Below, in pieces: positions 23,392 to 50,193 of a stretch of DNA of 50,193 bases (the stretch's first letter is position 1; the number at the start of each line of letters is the position of its first letter). A program made the position numbers and the translations under genes. The notes beneath the pieces were generated by a model that ran no database searches, was not told the origin of the DNA, and saw only the letters and a list, made by a program, of their open reading frames with translations. Origin of the DNA: a virus (Duplodnaviria; Heunggongvirae; Uroviricota; Caudoviricetes); IMG/VR virus record IMGVR_UViG_2585427746_000005, positions 1 through 50,193 of that record; one strand, 5' to 3'.

Positions 23392-24087
23392 CTAAAACCT
23401 ATCAATTTCCAAACATGAAATGGCATCATTGAAAATTGAAAAATGCTCATCAGGAACCACTGCAGAAGCCCCACTAGTTAATTCAAAACTAATCTTTGAA
23501 TCAAGGTAAAGCCCTCCAGCTTTTATTTTATCGAGCTTGAATTCGCCATCCCCAACAAAACTCTTCAAATCATGCAAAGCATCGCCACTAGAATTCAATT
23601 CCAAACATGCTCTTGTTTTGTCAGTAACAGGAAGATTTGATACCTTCACTTTTGAAATACCAAACACCTTTACGCCAAAATTTTCTCGAACGACCCTCAT
23701 GAAAGCTTTAAGATCAACGGTTAAATTTCCATAAGCAACATTTAATCCTTCAGCCTGAGATAAAAAATCGATGAAAGGTTTAACTGTTTTTGGCGGATTG
23801 TAAAAAGTTAACAGACATATCTTATTGCTGAGGGTTTGGATAGAAAAACTAATCTGATCAAATACAACCCTTTCGAATTCCAGCACCTCACCAAATGGAT
23901 CGGCAACCGGCTCTAAAACAACAGATTTTTTATTGAAAGTTGCAGCAATACCATTATGAATGGTTTCATACTTAGTAAAGCCAGCACCAATAGCATCAGA
24001 ATAAGGCGTGTTTTTGATAAAATCAAAGACAGCCTCAGGGCTGGTTCTGATTTTCAATCTCATCCACTTCAATCTTAATTGTGACAT
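23392..24087 (-). CDS. Cargo operon gene 3, hypothetical protein
   Basis: 231 aa from ATG with AAGGAG SD; AT-rich; no motif recognised. Confidence 0.7.
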   Translation of the reverse strand: MSQLRLKWMRLKIRTSPEAVFDFIKNTPYSDAIGAGFTKYETIHNGIAATFNKKSVVLEPVADPFGEVLEFERVVFDQISFSIQTLSNKICLLTFYNPPKTVKPFIDFLSQAEGLNVAYGNLTVDLKAFMRVVRENFGVKVFGISKVKVSNLPVTDKTRACLELNSSGDALHDLKSFVGDGEFKLDKIKAGGLYLDSKISFELTSGASAVVPDEHFSIFNDAISCLEIDRF

Positions 24088-24106
24088 AGCCACTCCTTAT
24101 GATGTA

Positions 24107-25171
24107 TTAGCTGATTTCCATTATAATAGAATAAGCTCTATTTTCAATTAGTTTATTGAATCGCTCAGCTTCTCTACCAGAGAGTTTTTGCGGCTTACTG
24201 AAATATTGTCCATTTGCCTTATACTTTCTGACTCCCTTAACCAAATATGAAAAATTAGTACAATTAAGAGGATCACCAAATTGGGCCTCAAGCTCAAATA
24301 TATCTGGATCAGCCAAGTTCTCCTTGACCTTCCATTTTATTTTCCAAATATAGAACCCTCTATCATAAAGATCACTTAATTCATCAGATTTAAGCACCCC
24401 CTCCCCCTTAAGTGATGCCCTAGACACGTGCACCCCAGTTTCGGTGTTTCCATCTTCAGCCTCAATAGTTTCAGGCTTAGGGTGATATACATAAGCATCA
24501 GTAACATCCAGTAACTCATAACCATCAAGTGTACGGATTAATCTATCGAAGAATAAAGTTCTAACATCAGCAGATGTATTGTGAGAGAGAGAAATTTCGT
24601 TTAATTTTAAATCAAGGTTACTATCATCCGCTTGCTCGTCCTGAATAGCGCTGATGTGCCCAAGTAAGAGTCCCTCGTAATCTTCAAGGTTTTCATTATC
24701 TGGACGACGGATACTGTAACCATCATCAAGAGGCTCAATTTCAATTAACGCCTCTTTATTAATAGCCTGTTTGAAATCACTTTTACCATAATTAGTTGAA
24801 AGATACCTGATATTAATAAGAACTCGAGGCCCATCTACGATTATTTTACAATAATCATCCTGATCGGTAATTTCTTTCTTAAGTTTTTCTGCGGCATCTA
24901 TAATACCTTTCTTATCTATACCAGTCTCAATTCTTACACATGTAAATTTTTCGGTCCTTGTCTGGCCACCTAAAAGGGTTGCAATTTTTTGATGCTCGTA
25001 ATAATCATGAGTCATTCGAGAATAGTTTCTTGCCAATTCTTTTCGAGGTGTTTTTTTACATATTATTGTCCCCCTCTCTAAGAAAAGATCTTGAATTTCA
25101 TTTAGAGTAATTTGCTTTTGGTTTAAAGCATCATATAAAGCTTTATCAGTTACGCTGTGAATATTTTTCAT
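24107..25171 (-). CDS. Cargo operon gene 2, hypothetical protein
   Basis: 354 aa from ATG (MKNIHSV...) with GGGAG SD; ATGA overlap with gene 1 stop; no motif recognised. Confidence 0.7.
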   Translation of the reverse strand: MKNIHSVTDKALYDALNQKQITLNEIQDLFLERGTIICKKTPRKELARNYSRMTHDYYEHQKIATLLGGQTRTEKFTCVRIETGIDKKGIIDAAEKLKKEITDQDDYCKIIVDGPRVLINIRYLSTNYGKSDFKQAINKEALIEIEPLDDGYSIRRPDNENLEDYEGLLLGHISAIQDEQADDSNLDLKLNEISLSHNTSADVRTLFFDRLIRTLDGYELLDVTDAYVYHPKPETIEAEDGNTETGVHVSRASLKGEGVLKSDELSDLYDRGFYIWKIKWKVKENLADPDIFELEAQFGDPLNCTNFSYLVKGVRKYKANGQYFSKPQKLSGREAERFNKLIENRAYSIIMEIS

Positions 25172-26232
25172 TTCGGCTCCCAAGAAATAACTTCTGCAGA
25201 GAAGAATTCTTTTACTGTAGACACAACTTTAACGTCTAAATCTTCAAGCCTCTTTTTAGCTTCTTCATCTAACCCATACTCATGTGCATATTTTTCAACT
25301 CCACGTTGAAAGTGTGAGAGAATCCTCTCATCTTTTTCTCGATAAGCCAGCCTTATCCTAATTTTATTTATACCATCAAGAATTTGATAATTTGACAAAA
25401 TATCTAACAAATAAAAAAATTCATTGTCGCTATTACCTTTTTTGTTGTAATACACAACAAACCCTTCTGGATAAACCTCCTCCTCTATACCTTTAGCTCT
25501 ATTATATTTATGAACAGCGCCATGTTTGATAATCATGAAAGGTGATGACAAGACTTCTATAGTAGCTGGAAGATATTTTTCAGTCACAGCAACCTTATGA
25601 AAAGTCAATTGAGGGTAATAGAATCCATATTCTTCATCAGGAAACTCTTTCTTAGCAATCAAATCATTCATATCATTCGTAATTGCCAACATATAATTAA
25701 TCAAAAATGGATCGATTATATGAATTTGCTGACCTGAAGATAAAGGAATCTTTTCTAAATTGACAGCCTTATCCCTTCTTCCTTTAGTAGGTTTAGGAGG
25801 ATTAAAAAAATCATAAAAATCATGCTGCAACTGATTATCATGATTAAAAACAAACAACAAACCTCGAACTTCACAGTCGATTTGAGAAAAATTATACTTT
25901 TCTGACCACTCAGGACTATACCGAGCACATTCAATAGTTTTTGCTAATGACTCCAGTGCAGATTCTATTTTTGACGCATTTATTGAACCTGCTTTATAAC
26001 TTTTTAAATCAGTATTTAAATAAATGACCTTGTTTAAATATGGATCTTTATAACTAAAAACAACATCTACAGGATGCGTATGCTTCTGTTTCTTACCTTC
26101 GGGCTTATGTTTAGCCTCATCATCACAAAGGAAATCTCGGTCGCAGGGGCCATGCTGCTGCCACTTAAATCGACTCAGTAGATCCTCAGATATGCGTTTT
26201 GCCAAATCTTCAATAGGGCCGTTCTCTGCCAT
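25168..26232 (-). CDS. Cargo operon gene 1, hypothetical protein (possible PD-(D/E)xK-like motif)
   Basis: 354-aa ORF, ATG with AAGGAA SD; HPVDVVF...IYLNTDLKSYK could be a D...(D/E)xK nuclease core but this is unverified. Confidence 0.7.
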   Translation of the reverse strand: MAENGPIEDLAKRISEDLLSRFKWQQHGPCDRDFLCDDEAKHKPEGKKQKHTHPVDVVFSYKDPYLNKVIYLNTDLKSYKAGSINASKIESALESLAKTIECARYSPEWSEKYNFSQIDCEVRGLLFVFNHDNQLQHDFYDFFNPPKPTKGRRDKAVNLEKIPLSSGQQIHIIDPFLINYMLAITNDMNDLIAKKEFPDEEYGFYYPQLTFHKVAVTEKYLPATIEVLSSPFMIIKHGAVHKYNRAKGIEEEVYPEGFVVYYNKKGNSDNEFFYLLDILSNYQILDGINKIRIRLAYREKDERILSHFQRGVEKYAHEYGLDEEAKKRLEDLDVKVVSTVKEFFSAEVISWEPK

Positions 26233-36099: not shown

Positions 36100-36144
36100 A
36101 TGTAGGAATTTCGGACGCGGGTTCAACTCCCGCCAGCTCCACCA
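36100..36144. repeat. attR: displaced 45-bp copy of the ssrA 3' end
   Basis: Identical to 1016-1060; followed by a second integrase gene. Confidence 0.85.
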
Positions 36145-36180
36145 ATTTTTGATATATTGAAGTTCAGTGAAGTCTATCAA

Positions 36181-36212
36181 GCCCGCATGGAACCAGCCTT
36201 GCGGGCTTTTTT
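36181..36212 (+). terminator. Rho-independent terminator downstream of the displaced ssrA 3' end
   Basis: GCCCGCA ... TGCGGGC stem followed by TTTTTT. Confidence 0.55.
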
Positions 36213-36310
36213 ACGTCTATAGTAGTCTACCGAGAATTGCTAGAATCTACTCGTTATGGCACCCTTTTTGGGACCCAACACAAAGGGTCCAAAACATGAG
36301 GGTCCCAAAC

Positions 36311-37540
36311 ATGGCAAAAATCGCTAAGAAGCTCACTGACACTGAAATCAAAAGCACCAAACCTGCCGAGAAAGAGGTTAACCTTTTTGACGGCGATGGT
36401 TTGCTCCTGCGAATCGCCCCCTTAGCGAAGGGAGGAAAGAAAAATTGGTATTTCAGATATGCAGTGCCTGTGACCAAAAAGCGAACTAAGGTGAGCTTAG
36501 GAACCTATCCTCACCTTACACTTGCGAAGGCACGAGCTTTACGTGATGAGTACTTGTCGTTGCTTGCAAATGGTATAGACCCACAAGTTCATAACACCCA
36601 CAAAGCCAATGCCCTTAAGGATGCAACGGAACATACATTTCAAGCAGTAGCCAAGAAGTGGCTTGATGAGAAAGTCAAAACGTCAGGCATCTCCCAGGAT
36701 CATGCTAACGACATCTGGCGAAGCCTAGAGAGAAATATCTTTCCAACGTTGGGTGATACCCCCATTAAGGAGATTCGCCCTAAAATGCTTAAACAGCATT
36801 TAGACCCCATAGAAAAACGAGGTGTCCTTGAAACACTTCGCCGCGTCATATCCCGCCTGAATGAAATTTTCCGCTATGCAGCAACAGAAGAACTCATAGA
36901 ATTCAATCCGGCTGACAACCTGGGGCAACGGTTCAGCAAGCCAAAAAAACAGAATATGCCAGCATTACCCCCTTCCGAACTCCCCCGCTTCCTGGTTGCT
37001 CTAAACAATGCTTCTATCCGTTTAGAAACAAGGCTACTGATTGAGTGGCAACTTCTCACATGGGTTCGCCCTGGTGAAGCTGTTCGCACAAGATGGTCAG
37101 ATATTGATATAGAAACCAGCATGTGGAACATCCCGGCGGAGTTTATGAAAATGAAGAAGCCTCACAAAGTTCCACTGAGCAAAGAATCTTTGCGAGTCTT
37201 GGATTCAATGAAAGCCATCAGCGGGCATAGAGAGTGGGTTTTTCCCAGTATCAAAGCTCCACTCAATCACATGCATGAACAAACAGCTAATGCGGCTATA
37301 ATCCGTATGGGCTTCGGAGGTGAGCTTGTAGCTCATGGTATGCGATCAATCGCTAGAACGGCGGCTGAGGAGTGTGGCAAGTTTAGAACTGATGTCTTAG
37401 AAGCCGCCCTTGCCCACTCGAAAAAAGATGAAATAATTGCAGCCTACAATCGTGCAGAGTATCTCACAGAACGTGTGGTTCTCATGCAATGGTGGAGTGA
37501 CTATGTTTCGTCTCAAAAATACAAAGTTATTGCCGCATAA
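36311..37540 (+). CDS. P4-type tyrosine integrase (IntA-like)
   Basis: Start moved to ATG MAKIAKKLTDTEIKSTKP...; N-terminal arm-binding-like segment and C-terminal catalytic domain. Confidence 0.9.
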   Translation: MAKIAKKLTDTEIKSTKPAEKEVNLFDGDGLLLRIAPLAKGGKKNWYFRYAVPVTKKRTKVSLGTYPHLTLAKARALRDEYLSLLANGIDPQVHNTHKANALKDATEHTFQAVAKKWLDEKVKTSGISQDHANDIWRSLERNIFPTLGDTPIKEIRPKMLKQHLDPIEKRGVLETLRRVISRLNEIFRYAATEELIEFNPADNLGQRFSKPKKQNMPALPPSELPRFLVALNNASIRLETRLLIEWQLLTWVRPGEAVRTRWSDIDIETSMWNIPAEFMKMKKPHKVPLSKESLRVLDSMKAISGHREWVFPSIKAPLNHMHEQTANAAIIRMGFGGELVAHGMRSIARTAAEECGKFRTDVLEAALAHSKKDEIIAAYNRAEYLTERVVLMQWWSDYVSSQKYKVIAA

Positions 37541-37822
37541 CTCTTCCATGATGGGTTAACTATCTTGATTTATTTGAAGAATTAATGATCACACCATTAA
37601 CCTATGTGGACTAAGCATAGCCATTTACAAATGGGTACCTTGAGGCCACATAACGAAAGCTGTCGGTCATATCAGCTAAATAATTCACATCTCTTCTCGA
37701 TTATCATACACCTCGAAGAACTACCAAATTCGCTCTAATCAATGATAAAACAGTTGAATTCGGTTAAAATTTGATCAATTTTATCCTCTACATTGTATTG
37801 AATCATCCATGAGGTTTTGTGC

Positions 37823-39379
37823 ATGGCTAGCGGAAATGAAAAAAATCATAGAGTTAGGGTCGCACAGTACTTGAGGATGTCTACCGACCATCAGCAATAT
37901 TCTTTACATAATCAGTCTGAATATATCAAAGATTATGCTGAAAAGAACAATATGGAAATCGCTTATACCTACGATGATGCAGGTAAGAGCGGAGTCAGTA
38001 TCGTAGGCAGGCATTCTTTGCAGCAGTTACTTAGCGATGTAGAACAAAAGAAAATAGATATACAGGCTGTATTATTTTATGATGTGAGCCGTTTTGGTCG
38101 TTTTCAAAATAGTGATGAAGCTGCATATTATTCCTTTCTATTTGAAAGAAATGGTGTAGATCTTATATATTGTTCCGAACCTATACCCACTAAAGATTTC
38201 CCTTTAGAGTCCTCTGTTATACTGAATATAAAAAGATCAAGTGCTGCATATCACAGCAGGAATCTATCTGAAAAGGTATTTATAGGGCAAGTAAATTTAA
38301 TAAAGCTTGGTTATCATCAAGGCGGTATGGCTGGTTATGGGCTGAGACGTCTTTTAGTAGACGAAAATGGCATAGCTAAAGAAATATTGAATTTCCGCAA
38401 AAGAAAGAGTATTCAAACAGATAGGGTAATATTAATTCCGGGACCAAAAAATGAAATAAAAATTGTAAATAGAATCTATGATCTCTTTATAGATAGTAAC
38501 GTCCCAGAATTCATTATTGCTGAGAGATTAAATGAACAGAGCATACCTGCAGAAAATGGAACATCATGGACTCGTGCAAAAATACATCAAATTTTGACAA
38601 ATGAAAAATATATTGGAAACAACATATATAACAAAACCTCATCTAAACTAAAAAGTAAGCTTGTAAAAAACCCCAAACATGAATGGATTAGATGTGACAA
38701 GGCATATAAACCAATTATTTCAAAGAAAAAATATAATAAAGCTCAAGAAATAATTCAGCTCCGATCCATTCATTTGACTAATGAAGATCTATTAGAAAAG
38801 CTAAAAGAAAAATTAGAATCTAATGGAAAACTATCAGGCTTTATCATTGATGAAGATGATACAGGCCCTTCATCTTCTGTTTATAGAACCCGATTTGGTG
38901 GTCTTTTAAGAGCATATACTTTGATTGGTTATAAGCCAGAACATGATTACAGCTATCTCCAAATAAATGAAGCACTAAGATCATTTTACTCAGAGATAAT
39001 TGAGGATTTTAAGGGCGAAATATTAAAAAGTAACTGTCATATAGACGAGTATAAATATTACCCAATGCTTTACATCAATGATGAGTTTTTAATTTCCGTC
39101 CTTGTTACTAAATGCATACATATGAAATCAGGTAAACTTAGATGGAAAGTCCGGTTTGATAACTCACAGAAAGCAGACATAACAATTGTTATACGAATGA
39201 ATTCACAAAATATTTCACCTCTTGATTTTTATATCATACCAAAGATTGAAAACGAATATAGTAAAATGTGTATGATGGAAACAAACAACATTCGGTTAGA
39301 TCTCTATAGATTTGATAATCTTGATAAATTTCTACAAATTATTACTCGCATGAAAGTGAGGGAACTATATGCTGCCTGA
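37823..39379 (+). CDS. Large serine recombinase (resolvase-domain N-terminus)
   Basis: YLRMSTDHQ...GKSGVS...LLFYDVSRFGR resolvase motifs with a long C-terminal extension; ATG with GAGG SD. Confidence 0.85.
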   Translation: MASGNEKNHRVRVAQYLRMSTDHQQYSLHNQSEYIKDYAEKNNMEIAYTYDDAGKSGVSIVGRHSLQQLLSDVEQKKIDIQAVLFYDVSRFGRFQNSDEAAYYSFLFERNGVDLIYCSEPIPTKDFPLESSVILNIKRSSAAYHSRNLSEKVFIGQVNLIKLGYHQGGMAGYGLRRLLVDENGIAKEILNFRKRKSIQTDRVILIPGPKNEIKIVNRIYDLFIDSNVPEFIIAERLNEQSIPAENGTSWTRAKIHQILTNEKYIGNNIYNKTSSKLKSKLVKNPKHEWIRCDKAYKPIISKKKYNKAQEIIQLRSIHLTNEDLLEKLKEKLESNGKLSGFIIDEDDTGPSSSVYRTRFGGLLRAYTLIGYKPEHDYSYLQINEALRSFYSEIIEDFKGEILKSNCHIDEYKYYPMLYINDEFLISVLVTKCIHMKSGKLRWKVRFDNSQKADITIVIRMNSQNISPLDFYIIPKIENEYSKMCMMETNNIRLDLYRFDNLDKFLQIITRMKVRELYAA

Positions 39380-40265
39380 AAAAAATGAATTCCCAATAAT
39401 TCAAATTGAGATTGCAAAAATAAAATTTCTTAACCCACGAACAAGAAATAAGGTAGTGCATGAAGAAATAAAGGAAAGCATAAAAAAAAGAGGATTAAGC
39501 AAGCCTATAAGCGTAAGAGCTATTGATGAAGACGATTTCAAATATGCTTTAATTTGTGGTCAAGGGAGAATAGAGGCTCTTGTTGCATTAGGTGAAACTA
39601 TTATTCCAGCAATTATAAGAGATGTATCAGAAGAAGATGCTTACGTTATGAGTTTAGTTGAAAACATTGCAAGGAGAAGACCACGTTCTAATGAGTTATT
39701 ACAGGTGATTAAAGACATGAAAATCAGAGGACTTTCAGACTCCGAAATAAGTGAGATTACTGGATATTCATCGAACTGGGTGAGCAGTATTAATATGCTT
39801 CTTGATAAGGGAGAGCATAAACTTCTCTCAGCAGTCGAACGGGGTAATTTGCCTCTGTATCTCGCAGTGCAATTTGCAAGATGTGAAACTGAGGAAGCAC
39901 AAGATATTCTTACCGAAGCATATGATAAAAAATTAATAAAAAGTCGGGACATTATAAAGATAAAATACATTCTAAATCAAAGAACAGTTGGGAATAAAGG
40001 TGCAAAAGCAGCCGGATTTTATTATCACAAACCATCAAAAAGGATGACTGCAGAGGAGTTGATTGAGCTTTATGAAAATAGTATCGCTGAACATAAATCT
40101 GTTTATAACAACTCGAAATTTATAAAAACCAATCTACTAATAATAAATGAGATTTTTAACATCATAATGATGAATAAAAGCTTTCAAAATATACTTGAAC
40201 AAGAGAATCTTTCAGAACTACCATCTCAGATATTAAACCCAGTAAACAAAGAGGTATCAAAATGA
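39369..40265 (+). CDS. ParB/Srx-fold N-terminal domain protein
   Basis: ICGQGRIEAL resembles the ParB GxxR box; 11-nt overlap with the recombinase gene. Confidence 0.65.
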   Translation: MLPEKNEFPIIQIEIAKIKFLNPRTRNKVVHEEIKESIKKRGLSKPISVRAIDEDDFKYALICGQGRIEALVALGETIIPAIIRDVSEEDAYVMSLVENIARRRPRSNELLQVIKDMKIRGLSDSEISEITGYSSNWVSSINMLLDKGEHKLLSAVERGNLPLYLAVQFARCETEEAQDILTEAYDKKLIKSRDIIKIKYILNQRTVGNKGAKAAGFYYHKPSKRMTAEELIELYENSIAEHKSVYNNSKFIKTNLLIINEIFNIIMMNKSFQNILEQENLSELPSQILNPVNKEVSK

Positions 40266-41158
40266 TTCAGATACGTTTTGGCAAAAATTTTATTTACCTG
40301 GAAACTAATAAGTTAATTCCATCTAAGGAATTATTAGAAAACGTAAAGCGAAGCCATAAATATCATCAAATAGTTACCTCTATCGAAAGCTTGGGTATTA
40401 TTGAACCAATAATAGTATTCTATGACAAAGATAAAGATGTCACTAAGATACTTGATGGCCATTTAAGGGTTGAGGCTTTAAAAGACTTAGATATAGAAAA
40501 AGCTCCATGTATACTTTCGAGCATAGATGATGCTTTCACTCCTAACAAACAAGTGAATCATATAAATGTAGTTGAAGAACATAGAATGATAATTAAGTCT
40601 CTGGCAAAAGTATCAATTGAAAAACTTAGTGCTGCTTTGGGCATATCTGTTGATGCCATAAAAGATAAAGCTAATGTGATGAACGGCATAGATCCAAGTG
40701 TAATTGCGAAACTTTCTGATAAACCTATACCTAAGGCTACATTTGACGTTTTGAGGAAAATGAAGCCAATTCGTCAAATTGAAGCAGTCGGTACAATGAT
40801 TAATTTTGATAATTATAGTAAAAAATTTGCAATGAGCATCTTGGATGCAACACCGTCATCGATGATAGTAAATAAAGGGAAAAACACTCCCTATAAAAAG
40901 GACATAAAAAAAACCATACTTCGTCTGGAACAAGAAATGGCAACAACTTCGGAAGAAACGAAAAAACTTCAAACCGAGTATGGTTCAGATATGTTGAAAT
41001 TCGTTATAATCCAGTCATATATTAATAAATTACTTGGCAACTCTAAAGTTCTTCATTGGTTCTTAGAAAACGAGGTTGATTATCTTAATGAGTTAAAAAG
41101 AATTTCTAGAATAAATTCTTTGGATGATAAGACTCTTACTGAAAACAGCCAGTCATAG
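40262..41158 (+). CDS. ParB-like nuclease domain protein
   Basis: KILDGHLRVEALKDL matches the DGHHR-type ParB-like nuclease motif; ATGA overlap with the preceding gene. Confidence 0.65.
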   Translation: MIQIRFGKNFIYLETNKLIPSKELLENVKRSHKYHQIVTSIESLGIIEPIIVFYDKDKDVTKILDGHLRVEALKDLDIEKAPCILSSIDDAFTPNKQVNHINVVEEHRMIIKSLAKVSIEKLSAALGISVDAIKDKANVMNGIDPSVIAKLSDKPIPKATFDVLRKMKPIRQIEAVGTMINFDNYSKKFAMSILDATPSSMIVNKGKNTPYKKDIKKTILRLEQEMATTSEETKKLQTEYGSDMLKFVIIQSYINKLLGNSKVLHWFLENEVDYLNELKRISRINSLDDKTLTENSQS

Positions 41159-41811
41159 TCATGGTTTTATATAGCCTAAATAAACCAAGAAGTATACTTA
41201 CACAACGACCTTCACGCCGAAGAAGCTGTCAGATACGCCAGCAACCAAAGCATTGCGTTTAAGAGTCAGTCATTGATACGAAGGGATAACTGCGTATCAG
41301 CAGCCGGACATTGAGTCGAATAAAGGCTGGTAGAGAGGGACAGTTCTGTGTCACCGGGAGATTAGTCAGAAACATCAGCGGCAGAACAGATGAACCAGCA
41401 ATTGGTAGTGTACAGAAAACTCTCCAGTATATAATTATTCAACTTAACACTAAAAAAAATCACATAGTTAATATCATAATTTTTCTTTGGTCTACTTATG
41501 CGAGAGATATTGTGGCTTCAACCTGGTATTAGGAGTCGTTTCAGATAAAAGATGTTCTTCGATTCGACTGGACTTGGTAATAGCAATAAGTAATCGTGAA
41601 TATTGAAGGACGAAAGGCTACTTCAAAACAAAGTAACCTTTCCAATATTCCCATATATGGGACAAGTGGCACATTAACTGCACATAGTGCAGGATACATA
41701 TGACATAAAACTTTTTATTTATGGCATACATTAAAAATAACTTTTATTTTACGAATGTCAATAGGCTCTTGCTTAATACTTTTAAAATAATTAATTGATT
41801 TTTTATTATAG

Positions 41812-41831
41812 CTTCGCTTGTACAAGCGAAG
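41812..41831. repeat. Perfect 20-bp palindrome
   Basis: CTTCGCTTGTACAAGCGAAG equals its reverse complement; in the 1-kb non-coding gap between convergent operons. Confidence 0.6.
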
Positions 41832-42162
41832 ATCCTATTGTTCTTGAATGAATAATGCCAATTATAAAAGAAGCAAGGGCTAACCCTACGAAGCCGCTGC
41901 GCTTGTTTCTTTGGGTTCCCCTTGCTTTTCTTCCCTTCGGTTAGAAAAGAAAATCCAGCCCAGTTTATCAACTATCTACAGTATTCCCACTAAAGAGTAA
42001 CCGCCACTTTATACTCCGTTTGTGAGCTGAGGCTACTGTAGCATTTTTGGGTTTAAATTTTCTATCATTACCAGTTGTTGTGTCGGGATAAAAATATTTT
42101 CTCGCATCCAACCATAAAGATAGCAGATTTGCTATCATCATCACTTCACATAATGAAACTTT

Positions 42163-42194
42163 TTAAGTAGGCCTAAAATACAAGGCCTACTTAA
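42163..42194 (-). terminator. Putative terminator hairpin after the RelA/SpoT-like gene
   Basis: 11-bp perfect inverted repeat TTAAGTAGGCC / GGCCTACTTAA, 17 nt after the stop; no clean U-tract. Confidence 0.4.
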
Positions 42195-42210
42195 TAGCCG
42201 GAGATAGTTA

Positions 42211-43116
42211 TTATTTAGATGCTAAAATAGTATTTTTATTGAATTTTTCATCAGCATCTGTAAGCTTTTTCATTATTAAAGCAGGGGCTATATCCTGAAG
42301 CTCCGTAGATTTTATGAAAAAATAATTACAAAGGTAAATTATATTATTAAGATTAATTGGTATATCAATATTATAATCTAACATTAACGATAACAAACGA
42401 TCTCTGTCAATTCTATAAAACTTTTTACCAAGCTCTTTCTCATTAATTATTGAAATTATCTTTTCATCAAGCTTATCGTCCATTCTCAATCTTAATTTAT
42501 TTCTTAGCATAGCGGACCATGCGCTTGACTTATAATTTCTATATGCTAAATCCTCAAATAACTTCATTATTCCCCAATCAGATGTTTCCAAAGAGGCGTA
42601 AATTCCATTCAGCGCGCGACTAAGGTCATTATGCTCAACCCAATCCTCTTTGCACTTATAGCGTAGATCATGCTCAACTTCATGCCATCCTTCAGATAAA
42701 ATAGTTCTAAATTGGACTTCAAAAGTAGTATCAATATAAGAATATTTCTTTAATAAGACACTATCATTTGATAATACTTCTGGTAACTTAAAGACGTAAT
42801 TGCATCGAGTTGCCGCAAAGAGATTAGCCGTGGTTTCGTCTACGGTTTTAGATTCAATTTCGAATAATTTCTCCAGTGTTTTTTGAGCAATAAATAAATC
42901 ATCAGGAAAATATAATATTATCCTAACCCCAAATAAGTCTTGAATTTTTTTACCATCCTCTGAGTATTTATTAGGCTCTTTTTCATATTTCTTAATTATT
43001 GAGCTTTCTGATTTTGTCCTCGAAAAAAAACGATAAAGTAATCCAATACGATTAAGTTCATCTTCTATATCTTTTTGCAAACTTTGAATAATTCGCAATT
43101 CATTCCCGTTATACAT
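42211..43116 (-). CDS. RelA/SpoT-domain nucleotidyltransferase (small alarmone synthetase / toxSAS-like)
   Basis: DLFGVRIILYF and FEVQFRTILSEGWHEVEHDLRYK match the synthetase-domain motifs; start overlaps the upstream stop (TGATG). Confidence 0.8.
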   Translation of the reverse strand: MYNGNELRIIQSLQKDIEDELNRIGLLYRFFSRTKSESSIIKKYEKEPNKYSEDGKKIQDLFGVRIILYFPDDLFIAQKTLEKLFEIESKTVDETTANLFAATRCNYVFKLPEVLSNDSVLLKKYSYIDTTFEVQFRTILSEGWHEVEHDLRYKCKEDWVEHNDLSRALNGIYASLETSDWGIMKLFEDLAYRNYKSSAWSAMLRNKLRLRMDDKLDEKIISIINEKELGKKFYRIDRDRLLSLMLDYNIDIPINLNNIIYLCNYFFIKSTELQDIAPALIMKKLTDADEKFNKNTILASK

Positions 43117-45221
43117 CAGAAATTCCTCCCAAGAATTGCTTTAATCTCTGATATTCTTGCCATGTTAAGTTCAAGGAACGAACGCTTGTCTGGCGTAAGT
43201 AAAAGACCGTCTTTCCTCAATTTATCTAAAGAATGGAGTATTTCACTTAACTGAAATTGATTGTTGTTAGAACATAAGCCTTTTATAGGCCGATGCTTAT
43301 GATAGCTAACACTCCCTCTGGGACAGAACTTCTCTAAGATGTAAATATCACAATCTGTAATATCGTGATCATTTTCACTGTTTATCTCGACAGATTTTTT
43401 ATTAATAGCATCATTGTCACATTCACATCCCAAAAAATAAATATCTTCCCTACCACTTAATTCGTTAAAACTACAATCTATAAAAGAACAGTTCACGAAT
43501 GTAACGTTTTTATAATTACCACAGGTAAATATGCTGCTAAAAAACGAACAATCAACAAAGATAGTATCATGTATTATATTTATATCGCCTAAAGAAAGTT
43601 TTGATATAGACAATTGCTCAACACTATCATTTTTTAAATCTAATGGAACTTTTCCTATAAGCAAATGACTATAAAGGATTTTATCATTACCTGACATAAA
43701 ATATAAAGCAAACTCTAAGCTATGCCAAAGTAATTCTTTTTCATCATCGATCCTCGGCATATAAGATTGCACTGCTGGTTCTATAAAACGTTTATCACCA
43801 ATCCATTCATTTGACTTATCATTAATAATATTTTCAGAAACAAAATTACCAAGAACAAATTCATTAACAAATCCAATACCTTGGTTTTCTGAGCCTGACC
43901 GATCTAATAGAGCATGCGATGCTAATTTATTAACTAATTCGTCAGTAGTTGGTCTTTCATCTACAGTATAAAGCTTTCTTGTAGCCTCCAAGAGTTGTTG
44001 ATTCTTTTCAGTTATGACTAACGATATATACTCTCTAGACTCAGATGTGTAGTTACCCTCGACCATGTCGTCAGCTATTATTTTTAGTATAGTATATTGA
44101 TCTTCAATAGACATTAATAAATCTTGTCTTTTTCTTTCTCGCTCAAGCATTGAATCAAAATACTTCCTCACTATAGTTGTTGGGTCGCTTATAACTTTAT
44201 TAAAGTCGGTGTCGTCGATGCATCTTAGAAATGATAGCAGTACAGGGTTTGATAATTTGTTAAGAGGAAATCCTGTCGATGAAATTTCATCTAAACGTTG
44301 ACCTGGAAGCCAGTCTTCAATTTGTGGTTCATGAATTCTTATTCTTATCACATCAAAATCTTCTTGATGTGATGCTATCCACTGATGGAATTCATCTCCG
44401 TCAAATATAGCTGTTCTTCGAGTTGTCAAAACCACTTTTGCACTATCAGTTAGAAGCTCACTTATTGTTTCCAGCATTGGCTCTGTTTTTTCATAATTAT
44501 TTTCAATTCCGTTTGTACTTTCATGCAATAGTTCATCAAACCCGTCAAGTATAACTGGTACATTTCCTGCTCTTATTTCATTCCTTACTAAGGCTGAGCT
44601 TAACAAAGGAAAACTTCTATCAATTTCATCTAATAGTACATACCTGAATATTTTTGCTTGCCTATTCCTTGATAGTTCTGAAAATAATGGTATTTTCCCT
44701 ATATTGTTAACTATAATCTCCCTCAATAATTCATACGCCGTGCAAGTCTTTCCAAAACCGGCTGCAGCCTCAATCAAAAACAGAATTGGACGCCTATGTT
44801 GTATTCTCTCTAATATTTCCGTAACAACATTAGCTTCGCCAATAACACCATTTAAGTAATATTTTGAATTTATGTAGGAATAAGTTGCAGTAGGTGAGTG
44901 AATTTTTACAATTGAATCTGTGAAAGTATTATAATCTTTAATCAACCTTTCTTTAGTTGAATCGACGCTAAAGAAGCCATTAAATAATTCCTTATGTGCT
45001 TCTTCATAAGACTGATATTTTTTAATTTGACATGCATAACCTAACTGCCTATATTCTTCAAAGGTTTGATTTACATTAACCTCATTATTTAGTGGAAGTA
45101 TGTCCGCGTTATGGTAGTGCCCTGTTTTAATAGAATATACAGCAATACTTTCGTTACCTGTATTTTCTTCAGTAAAACCAAACCTTTTATATATCTCTGT
45201 AAGTTTGCTTTTTCGTAACAT
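43116..45221 (-). CDS. NACHT/STAND-like P-loop NTPase with C-terminal pentapeptide repeats
   Basis: Walker A AAAGFGKT, NACHT-type Walker B VILDGFDEL, C-terminal FVDCSFFSSIFTCGNYKNVTFVNCSFIDCSF repeats; start moved to ATG with AGGAGG SD. Confidence 0.8.
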   Translation of the reverse strand: MLRKSKLTEIYKRFGFTEENTGNESIAVYSIKTGHYHNADILPLNNEVNVNQTFEEYRQLGYACQIKKYQSYEEAHKELFNGFFSVDSTKERLIKDYNTFTDSIVKIHSPTATYSYINSKYYLNGVIGEANVVTEILERIQHRRPILFLIEAAAGFGKTCTAYELLREIIVNNIGKIPLFSELSRNRQAKIFRYVLLDEIDRSFPLLSSALVRNEIRAGNVPVILDGFDELLHESTNGIENNYEKTEPMLETISELLTDSAKVVLTTRRTAIFDGDEFHQWIASHQEDFDVIRIRIHEPQIEDWLPGQRLDEISSTGFPLNKLSNPVLLSFLRCIDDTDFNKVISDPTTIVRKYFDSMLERERKRQDLLMSIEDQYTILKIIADDMVEGNYTSESREYISLVITEKNQQLLEATRKLYTVDERPTTDELVNKLASHALLDRSGSENQGIGFVNEFVLGNFVSENIINDKSNEWIGDKRFIEPAVQSYMPRIDDEKELLWHSLEFALYFMSGNDKILYSHLLIGKVPLDLKNDSVEQLSISKLSLGDINIIHDTIFVDCSFFSSIFTCGNYKNVTFVNCSFIDCSFNELSGREDIYFLGCECDNDAINKKSVEINSENDHDITDCDIYILEKFCPRGSVSYHKHRPIKGLCSNNNQFQLSEILHSLDKLRKDGLLLTPDKRSFLELNMARISEIKAILGRNF

Positions 45222-45298
45222 TAAACTCACCTCCTGATATTTTTCGCAATGATGCTATAGTCGCTGTATGAACTTTTAATATAATATTACAAAAACCA

Positions 45299-45337
45299 TC
45301 TACATAGCTACCGCCTAAGCAATAATAGCTATGTAGA
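45299..45337. repeat. 12-bp perfect inverted repeat upstream of the NTPase operon
   Basis: TCTACATAGCTA - 15 nt - TAGCTATGTAGA; followed on the minus strand by GGTTTTTG. Confidence 0.5.
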
Positions 45338-45945
45338 GATTATCTGTAAGAGAACAGTTCAACGGTTACGTGCACGTTATGACATCGTTCTAACTTCATG
45401 GGGTGCTCAGTAACAGAACTTTTAAGCCATTCTTGCTCGCTGAACATGCAGTCATACCTATCACAAGCAGTACAACCATTACTTAGCAGACCTCTGCTTC
45501 TTGTTCCAAAAGGAACGTAAACCAGATGTTAGAGTTAACAAAACTGAAAGCCACTGCCCCCCAAATCTCCAAGTCAAACATTAGAGACTTTAAGTGAGCT
45601 CAGCCCAGATTATGCATTCTAATCAATTTCCAAATAATCAATCGGGCTAAGCCGTGGTGGTCATCGCGCCAATCCCCATAATGAAGGATACATCTTGGCT
45701 GTATCATCTTCCTTACAACTGCGTTTCAACATGTGCTGAACAACACTCAAGTTAATGTAAATGAGCCAGTGAATACAACATCTGTTTCAAATCACTTTGA
45801 AGTTTTCTTCACTTAATGTGTACGCCAAAATTATCCGGATAAACATAGAGTAACGGTCGACCGGGATTACAATCAACCAGTTTCATCTCTAGTAAGCGAT
45901 ATTCTTAAGGCGGCAGCGGAATGTTCTGACAACCCCACTGAGGCG

Positions 45946-46332
45946 GTGCTACAAATCTTATCGAAGCCAAACATCAGCTACGTTTCCCTAGATGTTAAAA
46001 TCAGTAGTCGCAGGGCCAATGCTAATGATCCACACATTGACCGTGAAGGGGCCTTTCAGGTGGGTACGACTGCATTCCAAGTGACCACCGCACCTATGGA
46101 GAAATTGATTTCACACTGTATCAAAATCAAACGCGCAGGCTACAGGCCGGTCATCCTAACTCTTGAAAGCAAGGTCATTGCAGCACGCCAGCTGGCTGAT
46201 AACGTTGGTATGTCTGAACTGATAGCCATCCAGGCAGCTGAAACTTTCATTGGTAACAATATTGAAGAGATTGCTATTTATGACGGCGATAAAATCCGTG
46301 AGAGTCTCGCAAGATTGATACATCTCTTATGA
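45946..46332 (+). CDS. Hypothetical protein or gene remnant
   Basis: 128-aa ORF with GTG start and no clear SD, after about 600 bp of ORF-free sequence. Confidence 0.3.
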   Translation: MLQILSKPNISYVSLDVKISSRRANANDPHIDREGAFQVGTTAFQVTTAPMEKLISHCIKIKRAGYRPVILTLESKVIAARQLADNVGMSELIAIQAAETFIGNNIEEIAIYDGDKIRESLARLIHLL

Positions 46333-46913
46333 TTGATGAGCCTCTTGGATCGTTAACTTACTGACCGACTCCTGAAATACATAGAGCTCAGTAAGCTTAA
46401 CGAGTCGCTTTTTTCCACCATACCTAAGCCCCAAAACTAAAGCACTACGGCTTGATTGGGCTGGCGTAAGTCTGCACACCGAGCCTTTTGCACTATAAAT
46501 TTCTCAGAATATATAACCAATATGTCAGTAAAGGTTTAAAGTGAATGATTCGTTTTGGCAGGATACTTACGATTATCACAACACTATCACATATTGTGTC
46601 TCACACACAAAGTTGAAAATCAAAACAGAAGTAAAAGATATAATATTCCCCTGCTAAAATACGATTCACTTCAAACATTTAATATTAATGGGATATATTT
46701 CCCCCTAAGCAATGGGGAAAAACGCCCATCAATCAACCATGAAATAAAAATAGCACTTTTTGCAAACTATGAATTTATTTATATAAAACATCACATTAAA
46801 TTAGTTTATTCAAAAGAAAACGCTTGCTTATTTTTTATTATTAAAAATAAATTTGATTTTTATTTATTTGATAATATACATTCATTTCATCAAAATAATA
46901 AAGGAGAATAAAA

Positions 46914-47354
46914 ATGAAAAAACAAAACTATTCAACCCTGACAAGTTACCTATCTAAAACAAAAAAGAATACAGATCTCTACCGTCTGTATAACCCTCAC
47001 TTTTCAATATTCTGTAAAAATAGCATTGAAGATCATGTTTTTTATCTTAATTATTTTTCCAGACATATGGTGACGGAAAGAAATATTCTGACCATATTTG
47101 CTATCCATACCTTTTTCTCTTATAGCATGGAAAAAAAAGACACCATAAAAGCTTTTACCCGTTTTCTTAAAGAGGAGAATCACGATACTTTCTATCAGTC
47201 ATTTTCTTTTCGTGGCTGCAATATCATTTACACAAACAAAAAAGGCGAAGTGAAAGAGATCTCATGGTTTTCTTTTTCACGGATCTATGACGAGATCATT
47301 AAGATAAAAGAATATGAATACAACAATAATACCTGGCACAAAACGACCGCTTAA
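46914..47354 (+). CDS. Hypothetical protein (first gene of ankyrin operon)
   Basis: 146-aa AT-rich ORF, ATG with AAAGGAG SD. Confidence 0.6.
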   Translation: MKKQNYSTLTSYLSKTKKNTDLYRLYNPHFSIFCKNSIEDHVFYLNYFSRHMVTERNILTIFAIHTFFSYSMEKKDTIKAFTRFLKEENHDTFYQSFSFRGCNIIYTNKKGEVKEISWFSFSRIYDEIIKIKEYEYNNNTWHKTTA

Positions 47355-47368
47355 AAAGGAGAACGCCC

Positions 47369-48322
47369 ATGAGTAACTATACAGAAGATAATTTATTTGA
47401 CAGCAAAACTAAAAAAGACGTCCAGAATTGCATTGCTGCAGGCATTGACATTAACACACTTAATGAACACGGTGAAAACGCCCTTTTCGGTTGCGACAGT
47501 ATCGGGGCTTTAAAAGCCATGATTGAAGCAGGCATAGCGCTGAACCATACAGATTGTTATGGTAATAATGCCCTGTTTAGCAGAAAAAGCCCACGTGCAG
47601 TGAGGCTATTGATAAAGTCAGGTATTAACGTTCACCACAAAAATAATAAAGGCCAGTCCTGTCTTCACTGGCAGCGCTACGCCATAGATTGTGCGGAACT
47701 CCTCATAAACGCGGGCATTGATATCCACAGCACAGATAACGAAGGACAAACGCTTCTTTATGACCTCCTCGATCATGACGTCTTTGATTACTGGGTAAAT
47801 AAAGGGTGTGACATAAACCACAGAGATTATGGTGGCAAAGCGGTGCTGGATCTTCCGACTGACAACGAGTGGTGGATATATGATTTCAGTATTAATGCCC
47901 TCAAACGCCATGTTGATAGAATAGACAGCACGCCAGTATTATTTAAACATGTTTCAACTGAGGCTTTGCCTCTAATTGCTTTGCTTCATGAAAAAGGGCG
48001 TAATATCCTTATCGCTGAACACTGTTCCTTCGCATTATATGTCAAAAACATGAAGTACTTCTTTACCTCACTGAAAAAATATACCGATATCAGTCATGTT
48101 CAGTTTTATAATTGTTATCATGATAAACATATTGGTATCTACACCGGCATAGAAAGTGTGAAATGGTTCATTCGAAATGGTATCCGAATGGACGACGATA
48201 TACTCAGACAGCGTTCTGACTCCGATAAGATTTTTTCTTATATCGCAGCAAGAGAGAAAAAAGACCTGTTAAAAGAAATGAAGCCAGAGATCCCCCGTTC
48301 ATCTGTACGAAAAAGACTCTAA
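47369..48322 (+). CDS. Ankyrin-repeat protein
   Basis: At least four N-terminal repeats of the G-x-(N/T)-(A/L)-L...L(I/L)..G(I/A)..N pattern; ATG with AAGGAG SD. Confidence 0.75.
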   Translation: MSNYTEDNLFDSKTKKDVQNCIAAGIDINTLNEHGENALFGCDSIGALKAMIEAGIALNHTDCYGNNALFSRKSPRAVRLLIKSGINVHHKNNKGQSCLHWQRYAIDCAELLINAGIDIHSTDNEGQTLLYDLLDHDVFDYWVNKGCDINHRDYGGKAVLDLPTDNEWWIYDFSINALKRHVDRIDSTPVLFKHVSTEALPLIALLHEKGRNILIAEHCSFALYVKNMKYFFTSLKKYTDISHVQFYNCYHDKHIGIYTGIESVKWFIRNGIRMDDDILRQRSDSDKIFSYIAAREKKDLLKEMKPEIPRSSVRKRL

Positions 48323-48396
48323 AACTCTGGAGTAAACAACCCTTTTCTTAGTCTGCAAGGATTCATTTAATGACCATTAATCTGATATGTCCTCGT

Positions 48397-48430
48397 GGGT
48401 ATACTATTTGTCAAATGGTATACCTTTTTT
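48397..48430 (+). terminator. Putative terminator after the ankyrin operon
   Basis: GGGTATAC ... GTATACC stem followed by TTTTTT. Confidence 0.4.
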
Positions 48431-48523
48431 AATCCAGATAATTAAATTATTTATCCCGTAACAACTTGACTTATTCATTTCATCGGTTATCTGTAGTAAT
48501 AAACATGAAATAAAAGGATAACT

Positions 48524-48931
48524 ATGAACAGTGACATGAGTAATGATGATGATATAACCAGAGTATCAAAACGCGGTAAATTCCATACTGACAAATTTCC
48601 TGAGAATGAAATACGACATCACTGCATCAGTGTCAGATTAAATGAAGAAGAATTAATTATTCTCGACAGTAAAAGAGGTCAGTATAAAAAAGGAGAATGG
48701 CTCAGGATGGCTTCCCTGAATAAACTCCCGCCGGTTCTGCCAGAAATCAATCGTGAAGCATGGATAAAACTTGGCAGCCTTTCACAGGATTTAAACTACC
48801 TGTTGAGTCATCTCGACAGCAAAAGCCCTGACAGCGAACTGACCCGTACAGAACTCTTCGCCCTGCGCAGACAAATCAAAACTCTCAGGGATCACCTTAT
48901 TCCCTCAACATTTCTGGAGTCAGACCCATGA
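48524..48931 (+). CDS. MobC-like relaxosome accessory protein
   Basis: 135-aa protein with RHH-like segment and LGSLSQDLNYLLSHL motif; ATGA overlap with the relaxase gene. Confidence 0.65.
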   Translation: MNSDMSNDDDITRVSKRGKFHTDKFPENEIRHHCISVRLNEEELIILDSKRGQYKKGEWLRMASLNKLPPVLPEINREAWIKLGSLSQDLNYLLSHLDSKSPDSELTRTELFALRRQIKTLRDHLIPSTFLESDP

Positions 48932-50193
48932 AAGGCATGCAGAAAATAAAAAGGGGTAAACAATTCACAGGTGTGGTTATTTATAGCCTGAAGTCAGGTT
49001 CTCACCACAAAATCACGCCTTATGTCATCGGTGGCAACATGACGGGTAGCACTGCTGCTGAGCTTATAAGTGAATTTGAAGGCACCCGACTGCTGCGTCC
49101 CGATGTCGCCAAACCTGTCTGGCATAATTCACTTCGCCTGCCAAAGGGTGAGAAACTGTCAAACAGACAGTGGGCAGCATTCGCTGACGATTATATGGCC
49201 CGAATGGGCTTCACTGACACCCATCTTCGCTGCTATATCATGCACGATGATCCGGATGGGCAGCATATTCATATCATTGCAAGTCGTATTAACATGGTCG
49301 GTGGAAAACTGTACCTGGGGAAAAATGAAAATCTTATCGGCACACGGATTATCAGTGAGCTGGAGAGAGTACACGGCCTCACCGAAACTACGGGTGTAAC
49401 CGGCAGTAGCCGCCAGGATAAAAGGAAGCCTTCCCGTAATGAACTGATGATGGCAGAACGCACAGCAGCTCCCTGCCCTAAGTCACTGTTGCAGGCCCTG
49501 CTCGACAATGCATTAACACACCATCCCGATTTACTAACCTTTGTTCGCTTACTGGAACAGGAAGGAGTGACCTGCAAACCCAATATCGCCACTACGGGTA
49601 AAATGAGTGGATTTTCATTTCAATACCAGGGTATTGCCTTTAAAGCATCTCAGTTGGGTAAAAAATATGGCTGGTCTTCCCTGCAAGCACTGATTGATTT
49701 TACGCCTGAGCATCTGAGTTTACTGAAAGAAGCCCAGAGGCCAATAGAACCTACAACCGCGCCAGTGCCAGTGCCAGTGCCAGTGCCAGTGCCAGTGCCA
49801 GTGCCAGTGCCAGTGCCAGTGCCAGTGCCAGTGCCATCATGCGAGTCTGAAGAGCAGGCTGCAAACCGGGAAACGATTCTGGAGAAAATCCATCAGCTTG
49901 AAGAAAAAATTCGTCTGGAAAGACAACAGGAGACAGTGGGTATCATCCAGCTCAGGAGCAATCTGCACAATACAGCTCGTCAGATACCCCGCCAGCGTCG
50001 TCTGTATTCATGGCTTGTATTGCTCGTCCATATTGTGGCACTTCTCAGGCGCAGAGGCATGTCTCTGTTACATGCCACTGCACATCCTTTCCACCAAATC
50101 CTCCACCTACATATTCTGACACCCTGTCATCCCATGACAACAAATACCAATAAAGAACAATCATTTAAAAACAACAACCATCCTGCACCATAA
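48928..50193 (+). CDS. Mobilisation relaxase (MobA-like)
   Basis: Histidine triad IMHDDPDGQHIHIIASRIN; internal (PV)n linker; stop TAA at window end. Confidence 0.8.
   Translation: MKGMQKIKRGKQFTGVVIYSLKSGSHHKITPYVIGGNMTGSTAAELISEFEGTRLLRPDVAKPVWHNSLRLPKGEKLSNRQWAAFADDYMARMGFTDTHLRCYIMHDDPDGQHIHIIASRINMVGGKLYLGKNENLIGTRIISELERVHGLTETTGVTGSSRQDKRKPSRNELMMAERTAAPCPKSLLQALLDNALTHHPDLLTFVRLLEQEGVTCKPNIATTGKMSGFSFQYQGIAFKASQLGKKYGWSSLQALIDFTPEHLSLLKEAQRPIEPTTAPVPVPVPVPVPVPVPVPVPVPVPVPSCESEEQAANRETILEKIHQLEEKIRLERQQETVGIIQLRSNLHNTARQIPRQRRLYSWLVLLVHIVALLRRRGMSLLHATAHPFHQILHLHILTPCHPMTTNTNKEQSFKNNNHPAP
49762..49836 (+). repeat. Hexanucleotide tandem repeat (CCAGTG), about 12.5 copies, encoding (Pro-Val)n
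   Basis: Uninterrupted CCAGTG repeats inside the relaxase ORF, in frame. Confidence 0.9.

Follow-up and report, generated by a model that had tools for sequence, protein, structure and literature searches.

What is the function of a gene for a NACHT nucleoside triphosphatase (NTPase) that runs without a gap into a gene for a RelA/SpoT-like synthetase? The question is raised by IMG/VR record IMGVR_UViG_2585427746_000005 (Caudoviricetes), of which the stretch from position 1 to 50,193 was analysed and is called the window below. An initial annotation, made from the sequence, had left two options for this gene pair, a sensor-effector defence pair or an unusual toxin-antitoxin. Our analysis favours the sensor-effector option over a classical toxin-antitoxin. 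With a probability that we put at roughly 0.55, the pair would be a horizontally mobile two-gene immune module, in which an NLR-like sensor controls a synthetase effector.

Both open reading frames (ORFs) listed by the initial annotation, of 701 and 301 amino acids (aa), were found where it had placed them, on the minus strand and with the 1-nt stop/start overlap that it had described (Table 1). At the junction, which reads GGGAGGAATTTCTGATG, the TGA of gene 1 and the ATG of gene 2 have one base in common, and the Shine-Dalgarno sequence of gene 2 lies inside the 3′ end of gene 1. In most orthologous pairs, the overlap is 1 or 4 nt, or the genes are no more than 3 nt apart. The GC content of the pair is 31–34% versus ~50% or more in the DNA on either side, and the pair is carried by a mobilisable island, in line with its earlier description as AT-rich island cargo. 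RefSeq entries for identical proteins are named ‘NACHT domain-containing protein’ (WP_000944877.1) and ‘RelA/SpoT domain-containing protein’ (WP_000282312.1).

Co-occurrence of the two genes was surveyed in one genome per species (100,044 species), scanned with the synthetase family. This gave 80 loci from six phyla, namely Gamma- and Betaproteobacteria, Bacteroidota, Campylobacterota, Myxococcota, Cyanobacteria and Bacillota. An NTPase homologue of ~700 aa (E 1e-81 to 0) was present directly upstream and on the same strand in 78 of the 78 informative loci; the other two of the 80 start at a contig end, without any upstream DNA, and were excluded. Conversely, the six plasmids that carry an NTPase homologue (down to 36% identity) all have the synthetase gene immediately downstream. 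The two proteins co-diverge, with a correlation of r = 0.93 between their pairwise distance matrices. No third conserved gene of at least 100 aa was found around the pair, the most frequent neighbour family being present in 10 of the 78 loci and not at a fixed position, and no small ORF (30–130 aa) on either side recurred beyond close relatives. The linkage of the gene pair is obligate across phyla. The domain E-values, given below, and this conservation across phyla rule out chance as the source of what the initial annotation had noticed.

The pair has a sporadic distribution. The DNA of the window is that of Escherichia coli, and the 3.4-kb region of the pair is present in 77 of 5426 complete genomes of this species (1.4%), always on the chromosome and with at least 99% identity in 76 of them, and no NTPase homologue was found in 50,697 phage genomes. 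A divergent pair (36% and 45% identity) is carried by the Klebsiella pneumoniae IncFIB/IncFII plasmid OW967220, a conjugative plasmid of F type, where it lies near the replication region and not far from a gene for a pifC-like repressor. Recurrent neighbours in other species include type I restriction-modification (R-M) subunits, AbiEi/AbiEii, Schlafen/AlbA_2-type ATPases, integrases and conjugation genes, with R-M, AbiE or Schlafen-type genes in at least 18 of 77 loci. Decay of the pair is observed in two independent E. coli lineages, strains ML35 (IS3) and DLI.5a (deletion), which have lost the 5′ half of the NTPase gene, coding for the N-terminal domain and the nucleotide-binding domain (NBD), and retain a 100% intact synthetase. 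Other cases are IS2 insertions in pig isolates and frameshifted NTPase genes in further strains.

Conservation, charge and motif statistics given below refer to an alignment of 72 orthologues. The Walker A (GFGKT) and NACHT-type Walker B (LDGFDEL) motifs, claimed by the initial annotation for the NTPase, are both present and invariant, as are R268 and H436. As judged by position in the structural model and by the description of Kibby et al., R268 would be the sensor-1 Arg and H436 the equivalent of the ADP-contacting histidine of the winged-helix domain (WHD), H443 in NLRC4. The Pfam NACHT profile (PF05729) scored 17.5 bits with the window protein, below its cut-off of 26.7, and 29.1 bits, above the cut-off, with the orthologue from the Klebsiella plasmid; unmarked NACHT matches were obtained on metagenomic orthologues. 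An AlphaFold model of the NTPase (pLDDT 87, pTM 0.75) comprises, from N to C terminus, an alpha/beta domain, the NBD, a helical domain, a winged-helix domain, a helical spacer, a beta-helix and an alpha/beta domain of ~80 residues. The top Foldseek matches of this model were NLRP7, NLRP14, the NLRP3 NACHT and Avs4 (E 4e-9 to 6e-8).

The first ~125 residues of the NTPase are covered by a domain missed by the initial annotation, NA-iREase2 (‘NACHT-associated inactive restriction endonuclease 2’). A search of residues 1–125 for a catalytic D...(D/E)xK set revealed no invariant Asp or Lys; the conserved positions of the domain are aromatic or hydrophobic, together with E76 (91%). As far as can be judged from sequence, this N-terminal domain is a catalytically inactive restriction-endonuclease fold.

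The C-terminal region differs from the NACHT module in its conservation, since mean pairwise identity peaks in the NBD (0.49) and falls to its lowest values (0.17–0.28) in the part that begins at residue 471. The C-terminal half is the least conserved part of the protein and displays the pattern expected of a sensor region. The pentapeptide repeats that had been noticed there are weak in Pfam (17.9 bits, under the cut-off) and are supported by two other lines of evidence. Over residues 530–610, the family profile matched McbG-like, Qnr and MfpA structures in the PDB (E 9e-7 to 1e-4), and the AlphaFold model contains a beta-strand ladder at residues 533–597, forming a short beta-helix of ~70 aa. 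The pentapeptide and linker segment (528–620) carries a mean net charge of –8.7 and is negative in 72/72 orthologues. The basic domain that follows it is possibly winged-helix-like; a weak WH_III-A match was obtained with a single orthologue.

The product of gene 2 matches Pfam RelA_SpoT with 56.8 bits (E 3.2e-15; cut-off 27). The motifs read by the initial annotation, DxxGxR and EVQxRT...W.E..H...YK, correspond to D60..G63..R65, E133-Q135-R137-T138 and W144-H145-E146..H149..R152..K154, all of them invariant, and R33, K35, S39 and K43 are conserved as well. Synthetase motifs being invariant or nearly so across the family, the loss of catalytic residues that would have spoken against a RelA/SpoT-like enzyme was not observed. 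Its nearest solved relatives, by sequence and by structure, are RelP, RelQ and Rel, ahead of CapRel and Tas1. The AlphaFold model (pLDDT 93, pTM 0.88) displays the fold of a small alarmone synthetase (SAS) plus an extra helical domain of ~100 aa. No structural match was found for the synthetase beyond residue ~195 despite confidently modelled helices. This C-terminal domain (CTD) includes a conserved basic cluster composed of R205, K207, R209, R211, K231, R235 and R238. As judged by the invariant Walker A and B motifs, the sensor Arg, the WHD His and the SYNTH motifs, both proteins look active.

We further examined the wider family by searching 1.84 billion representatives exhaustively with a profile, which returned 252 synthetase clusters (50% identity clusters) at E <= 1e-30, most of them of ~290–330 aa. 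One variant, P0183 (427 aa), carries at its C terminus an HD domain with the hydrolase signature of RelA/SpoT homologues (RSH), of small alarmone hydrolase (SAH) type, and its gene immediately follows an NA-iREase2-NACHT gene on each of three independent metagenome contigs. The fusion of this hydrolase to the synthetase implies that the product is reversible by an RSH-type hydrolase, and it is thus safe to infer from these sequences that the synthetase would make something that such an enzyme reverses. The best PDB match of the HD domain is the (p)ppApp hydrolase Aph1 (7SMG, E 1.6e-18), the (p)ppGpp hydrolases being weaker. A call of (p)ppApp as the product was considered and dropped, the Aph1 specificity residues being different in P0183 (D24->R, R96->K, D116->S, R119->P). 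In sister architectures (P0205-P0269; L082, L089 and L090), the SYNTH-plus-CTD module lies N-terminal to extensions of 190–380 aa without assignment or to AAA_28 plus CYTH; these proteins may be single-chain sensor-effectors or physiological regulators. One such gene, on an Eubacterium eligens chromid (L082, 5914-7740), starts 4 nt after an adenosine deaminase gene and precedes a response regulator gene.

The pair had not been recognised as a named system in the initial annotation, and it matched none of the system models of PADLOC v2.0 or NCBIfam (2026). With PADLOC v2.0, the NTPase (window protein and 10 diverse orthologues) gave only P-loop noise, with no Avs model match, and the synthetase (72 members) gave only a partial match to the candidate PDC-S33, over 74 of 349 profile positions, observed in 34 of the 72 members with a best E-value of 2e-7. 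No description of a NACHT and RelA/SpoT gene pair was found in the literature, including the supplements of a 2026 STAND survey, within an incomplete coverage. The separate components and their logic are already known. Their two-gene combination, widespread and strictly conserved, is not described in the resources searched. None of the three outcomes named as refuting by the initial annotation, a match to a described system, the absence of catalytic residues and a lack of co-occurrence, was thus obtained.

The architecture of the NTPase is among those catalogued by Kibby et al., whose Table S1 lists ‘NA-iREase2+NACHT+Pentapeptide’ in clade 15, for example in Vibrio cholerae and Paenibacillus; the NTPase was assigned to this clade by architecture only. 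In that study, the NA-iREase2 subgroup is listed but was not tested and a RelA/SpoT partner gene is not mentioned. The same study reports that bNACHT proteins protect against phage, that clade-15 relatives carry a TIR or phospholipase domain at the N-terminal position, and that alarmone synthetases occur among NACHT-fused effector domains, including a eukaryotic Tox-RelA+NACHT+Pentapeptide fusion (10.1101/2022.07.19.500537; Cell 2023). The NTPase has the NACHT motifs and the WHD histidine in common with bNACHT clade 15. However, the tested clade-15 members (bNACHT09, 34 and 69) have other N-terminal domains and different sequences. The effector of the present pair is a separate protein. The clade-15 member bNACHT69 of Klebsiella was ruled out as an orthologue, since it differs in sequence and was cloned as a single-gene insert of ~2.5 kb. 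With Avs proteins, the NTPase shares the STAND logic of sensor, NTPase and effector, and Avs4 is among its structural matches, but in Avs proteins the effectors are enzymes fused to the rest of the protein and the sensors are large and of TPR type.

On the synthetase side, PANGU type I is the closest two-gene precedent. It is a two-gene operon for a nucleoid-associated sensor, Pag1A, and a toxic SAS (toxSAS), Pag1B/GRel; GRel is harmless alone, and binding of the sensor to its C-terminal domain converts an inert tetramer into an active complex that makes pppGpp (10.64898/2026.04.06.716658). Common to PANGU and the present pair are a separate sensor and a SAS composed of SYNTH, a helical linker and an extra C-terminal domain, which in PANGU is the partner-binding part. 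The differences concern the sensor, a DNA-clamping nucleoid-associated protein in PANGU and a STAND/NACHT ATPase here, and the charges. The PANGU SAS C-terminal domain is an acidic DNA mimic, whereas here the synthetase CTD is basic and the acidic surface lies on the pentapeptide helix of the NTPase. Pag1B also keeps the acceptor-loop (G-loop) Tyr, which the present synthetase family lacks. In CapRel(SJ46), by contrast, the toxSAS and its sensor/antitoxin domain are fused in one polypeptide, which acts on tRNA and includes no ATPase; no kinship of the synthetase to CapRel was detectable by sequence profile, and the synthetase is not a fused toxSAS of the CapRel type. The housekeeping SAS RelP and RelQ, the nearest solved relatives (sequence E 1e-14 to 1e-10), share all catalytic motifs with the synthetase. 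Unlike it, they have no extra C-terminal domain and no NTPase partner and are not mobile, and their acceptor loop reads GYRSxH instead of F..R.N. The Tas1/Apk (p)ppApp toxins, with their Aph1 hydrolase immunity (PMC10083569), use a SAH-type HD off-switch that is paralleled by the SYNTH-HD fusion of P0183.

We infer the following scheme, which covers the part played by the pair in defence, which of the two proteins controls the other, what triggers it, where the two touch and what exactly is produced. At rest, the NTPase would probably be ADP-locked through the winged-helix His436. An infection cue would be read by its C-terminal region, that is the acidic pentapeptide beta-helix and the basic terminal domain, and would provoke nucleotide exchange and oligomerisation. 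Since the effector slot of the NTPase is occupied by a dead nuclease fold, the arresting activity would be supplied in trans by gene 2, whose synthesis would be kept in step with that of gene 1 by translational coupling. The synthetase would be inactive until engaged by the NTPase. Once engaged, it would transfer pyrophosphate from ATP to a purine nucleotide, at the 3′-OH, and so form a product of (p)ppGpp or (p)ppApp type, and the drain on ATP and GTP would lead to growth shutdown before the phage cycle could be completed.

An extended version of this scheme, more ambitious and in our opinion somewhat doubtful, would make the pair an unnamed and widespread NLR-to-alarmone immune system with a reversed ‘DNA-mimic’ handshake and reversible dormancy. 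The acidic beta-helix of the NTPase and the basic cluster of the synthetase CTD are electrostatically complementary, and a contact between them is proposed as an idea. In a crude phylogeny-corrected covariation analysis, the signal between the synthetase CTD and the NTPase was weak (r = 0.28 for the pentapeptide region and 0.22 for the WHD). In such a handshake, the acidic beta-helix would hold either the basic CTD of the synthetase or the basic terminal domain of the sensor itself, until phage nucleic acid or a DNA-binding protein displaced the held domain. The outcome could be reversible dormancy and not suicide, with some variants carrying their own hydrolase as an off-switch.

Several observations weigh against the immune sensor-effector reading. 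The same covariation analysis, crude as it is, gave no signal for the iREase domain as a docking site. In a HMMER alignment to RelQ and 2be3, the column of the acceptor-loop Tyr falls on the variable position 103. This Tyr corresponds to Y155 of CapRel and Y129 of Pag1B, and the present family instead has invariant F100..R104..N106; the acceptor may therefore be unusual. Nor do the HD specificity residues of P0183 decide whether (p)ppApp or (p)ppGpp is concerned. Sister synthetase clades with other C-terminal extensions occur in ordinary chromosomal contexts, with no NACHT gene nearby, and recognisable defence neighbours are found in only about a quarter of the loci, a value that is a lower bound. 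Finally, the defence assignment draws on analogy and genomic context because no PADLOC model matches.

The unusual acceptor loop is the reason for which we keep a variant of the sensor-effector model, in which the effector would target tRNA. The best-known anti-phage toxSAS act on tRNA, the synthetase family is devoid of the canonical acceptor-loop Tyr and its extra domain carries the conserved basic cluster. A 2021 study by Kurata et al. reportedly found that SAH-type hydrolases also counteract tRNA-targeting toxSAS. We consider a tRNA target unlikely.

The second option of the initial annotation would make the synthetase a constitutively toxic toxSAS and the NTPase its antitoxin, the pair mainly stabilising the island or plasmid that carries it and any defence resulting from antitoxin loss. 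An overlapping bicistron on islands and plasmids, with an intact synthetase active site, is consistent with this proposal, and toxins make up several of the SAS subfamilies that are encoded in conserved two-gene operons; in the toxSAS modules FaRel, FaRel2, PhRel and PhRel2 (PMC7229694), as in Tas1/Apk, a conserved small operon supplies an RSH synthetase that serves as a weapon by arresting growth. However, the small adjacent antitoxin of a type II toxSAS module was not found here. No neighbour other than the ~700-aa NTPase is conserved, and this protein is not a small neutraliser but a STAND ATPase in which the ATPase site is invariant and regulatory residues of NLR type are present. Strains ML35 and DLI.5a, with their truncated NTPase genes and intact synthetase, also argue against a constitutive toxin, weakly since a C-terminal NTPase fragment remains. 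In PANGU, moreover, the SAS is not toxic alone. A toxin-antitoxin or addiction function thus seems improbable to us.

Nuclease folds without activity can function in ligand binding. A non-immune function, where the STAND switch would set alarmone synthesis on an endogenous signal or where, in a reversed flow, the synthetase product would be the ligand of the NTPase, would suit the housekeeping nature of the nearest solved relatives RelP and RelQ and the presence of related synthetase modules in ordinary chromosomal settings beside GGDEF/EAL, response-regulator or purine-salvage genes, but it is the hardest to credit given the sporadic and mobile distribution (presence in 1.4% of E. coli genomes at near-identity, in AT-rich DNA and on islands as well as conjugative plasmids), the R-M and Abi genes among the neighbours and the fast divergence of the NTPase C-terminal region, and the reversed flow would leave the system without any effector domain.

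The features of the locus are collected in Table 1. The alternative GTG start of gene 1, at 45230, falls within its Shine-Dalgarno sequence. A promoter scan of the AT-rich leader region gave 29 sites versus 20.7 +/- 5.3 in shuffled sequences, showing no enrichment and being uninformative.

Table 1. Coordinates, in the window, of the gene pair, its encoded domains and motifs, its flanking signals and its host element
Feature	Position	Strand	Basis and remarks
Gene 1, STAND/NACHT NTPase, 701 aa	43116..45221	minus	ORF; ATG at 45221, stop TGA 43118-43116
NA-iREase2 domain, aa 6-123	44853..45206	minus	Pfam PF22723, 1.4e-33, 116 bits versus cut-off 27
NACHT module (NBD, helical domain, winged helix), aa 126-470	43812..44846	minus	Invariant motifs
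Walker A, AAAGFGKT	44745-44768	minus	G155/G157/K158/T159 invariant in 72 orthologues
Walker B, VILDGFDEL	44529-44552	minus	D226-G-F-D-E-L231 invariant in 72 orthologues
Helical spacer, aa 471-527	43641..43811	minus	Secondary structure of the model; poorly conserved, mean pairwise identity 0.24
Pentapeptide-repeat beta-helix, aa 528-600	43422..43640	minus	Family profile and model
Small alpha/beta C-terminal domain, basic, aa 621-701	43119..43361	minus	Model; net charge +3.9, positive in 99%
Gene 2, RelA/SpoT-type SAS-like pyrophosphokinase, 301 aa	42211..43116	minus	ORF; ATG 43116-43114
SYNTH domain and long helix, aa 1-199	42520..43116	minus	Contains all synthetase motifs
Family-specific C-terminal helical domain, aa 200-301	42214..42519	minus	Contains the basic cluster
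Coupling junction	43114..43130	minus	Direct reading; GGGAGG Shine-Dalgarno 43130-43125, TGATG stop/start overlap 43118-43114
5′ leader of gene 1	45222..45350	minus	AGGAGG Shine-Dalgarno 45235-45230, 8 nt before ATG 45221
Promoter-like site, CTTACA-17-TATTAT	45350-45322	minus	Consensus match only
Terminator-like hairpin, ~75 nt downstream of gene 2	42119..42136	minus	Pattern match only
Host element, mobilisable island	36117..50193		Starts at a repeat of the ssrA 3′ end (36117-36144)

Apart from the pair, the island carries genes for an integrase (36167-37537), a serine recombinase, an ankyrin protein and a relaxase, together with two ParB/RepB genes and a DUF4928 remnant. A P2-like prophage separates the island from ssrA (698-1060), and the last 28 nt of the ssrA 3′ end (1033-1060) are repeated exactly at 36117-36144. 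Given this exact duplication, prophage and island are tandem insertions at a single site; strain FDAARGOS_1248 has the island immediately next to ssrA. The DUF4928 C-terminal fragment (45946-46329; profile positions 178–288 of 306), annotated as a pseudogene remnant in RefSeq, is located just upstream of the pair and may be what is left of a decayed neighbouring system. Further along the island, at 46914-48319, a 317-aa ankyrin-repeat protein is preceded by a 146-aa ORF without Pfam match, and the relaxase (48928-50193) contains a long (PV)n repeat, the end of its ORF coinciding with that of the window. The prophage, integrated at ssrA within the region 698-36144, carries genes for a baseplate hub, tape measure, sheath, tail fibre, P2-type capsid, terminase and GPA replication protein. 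It includes two AT-rich patches, one (14034-14924, GC ~36%) with a 297-aa DUF2971 protein and the other (23392-26232, GC 32–40%) with minus-strand ORFs of 233, 358 and 354 aa, the last two of which gave no match in Pfam. These patches look like hotspot cargo, possibly other defence genes.

If the sensor-effector reading were confirmed, a broadly distributed system, present in six phyla and with 252 effector clusters at 50% identity, would be added to the known defences. It would represent a new route of NLR-like signalling, in which a stand-alone nucleotide pyrophosphokinase acts in trans, as against a fused nuclease, TIR or protease. It would also be the second independent case, after PANGU, of a non-toxic SAS licensed by a sensor partner, suggesting ‘sensor plus latent SAS’ as a general design. 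The pair would provide a tractable system in E. coli, native to about 1% of strains, with which to address how a NACHT protein activates an enzyme not fused to it, what the dead nuclease does and whether an alarmone arrest is reversible during infection. Should the extended version with handshake and dormancy hold as well, NLR-type pattern recognition would be tied directly to nucleotide signalling of the stringent-response type.

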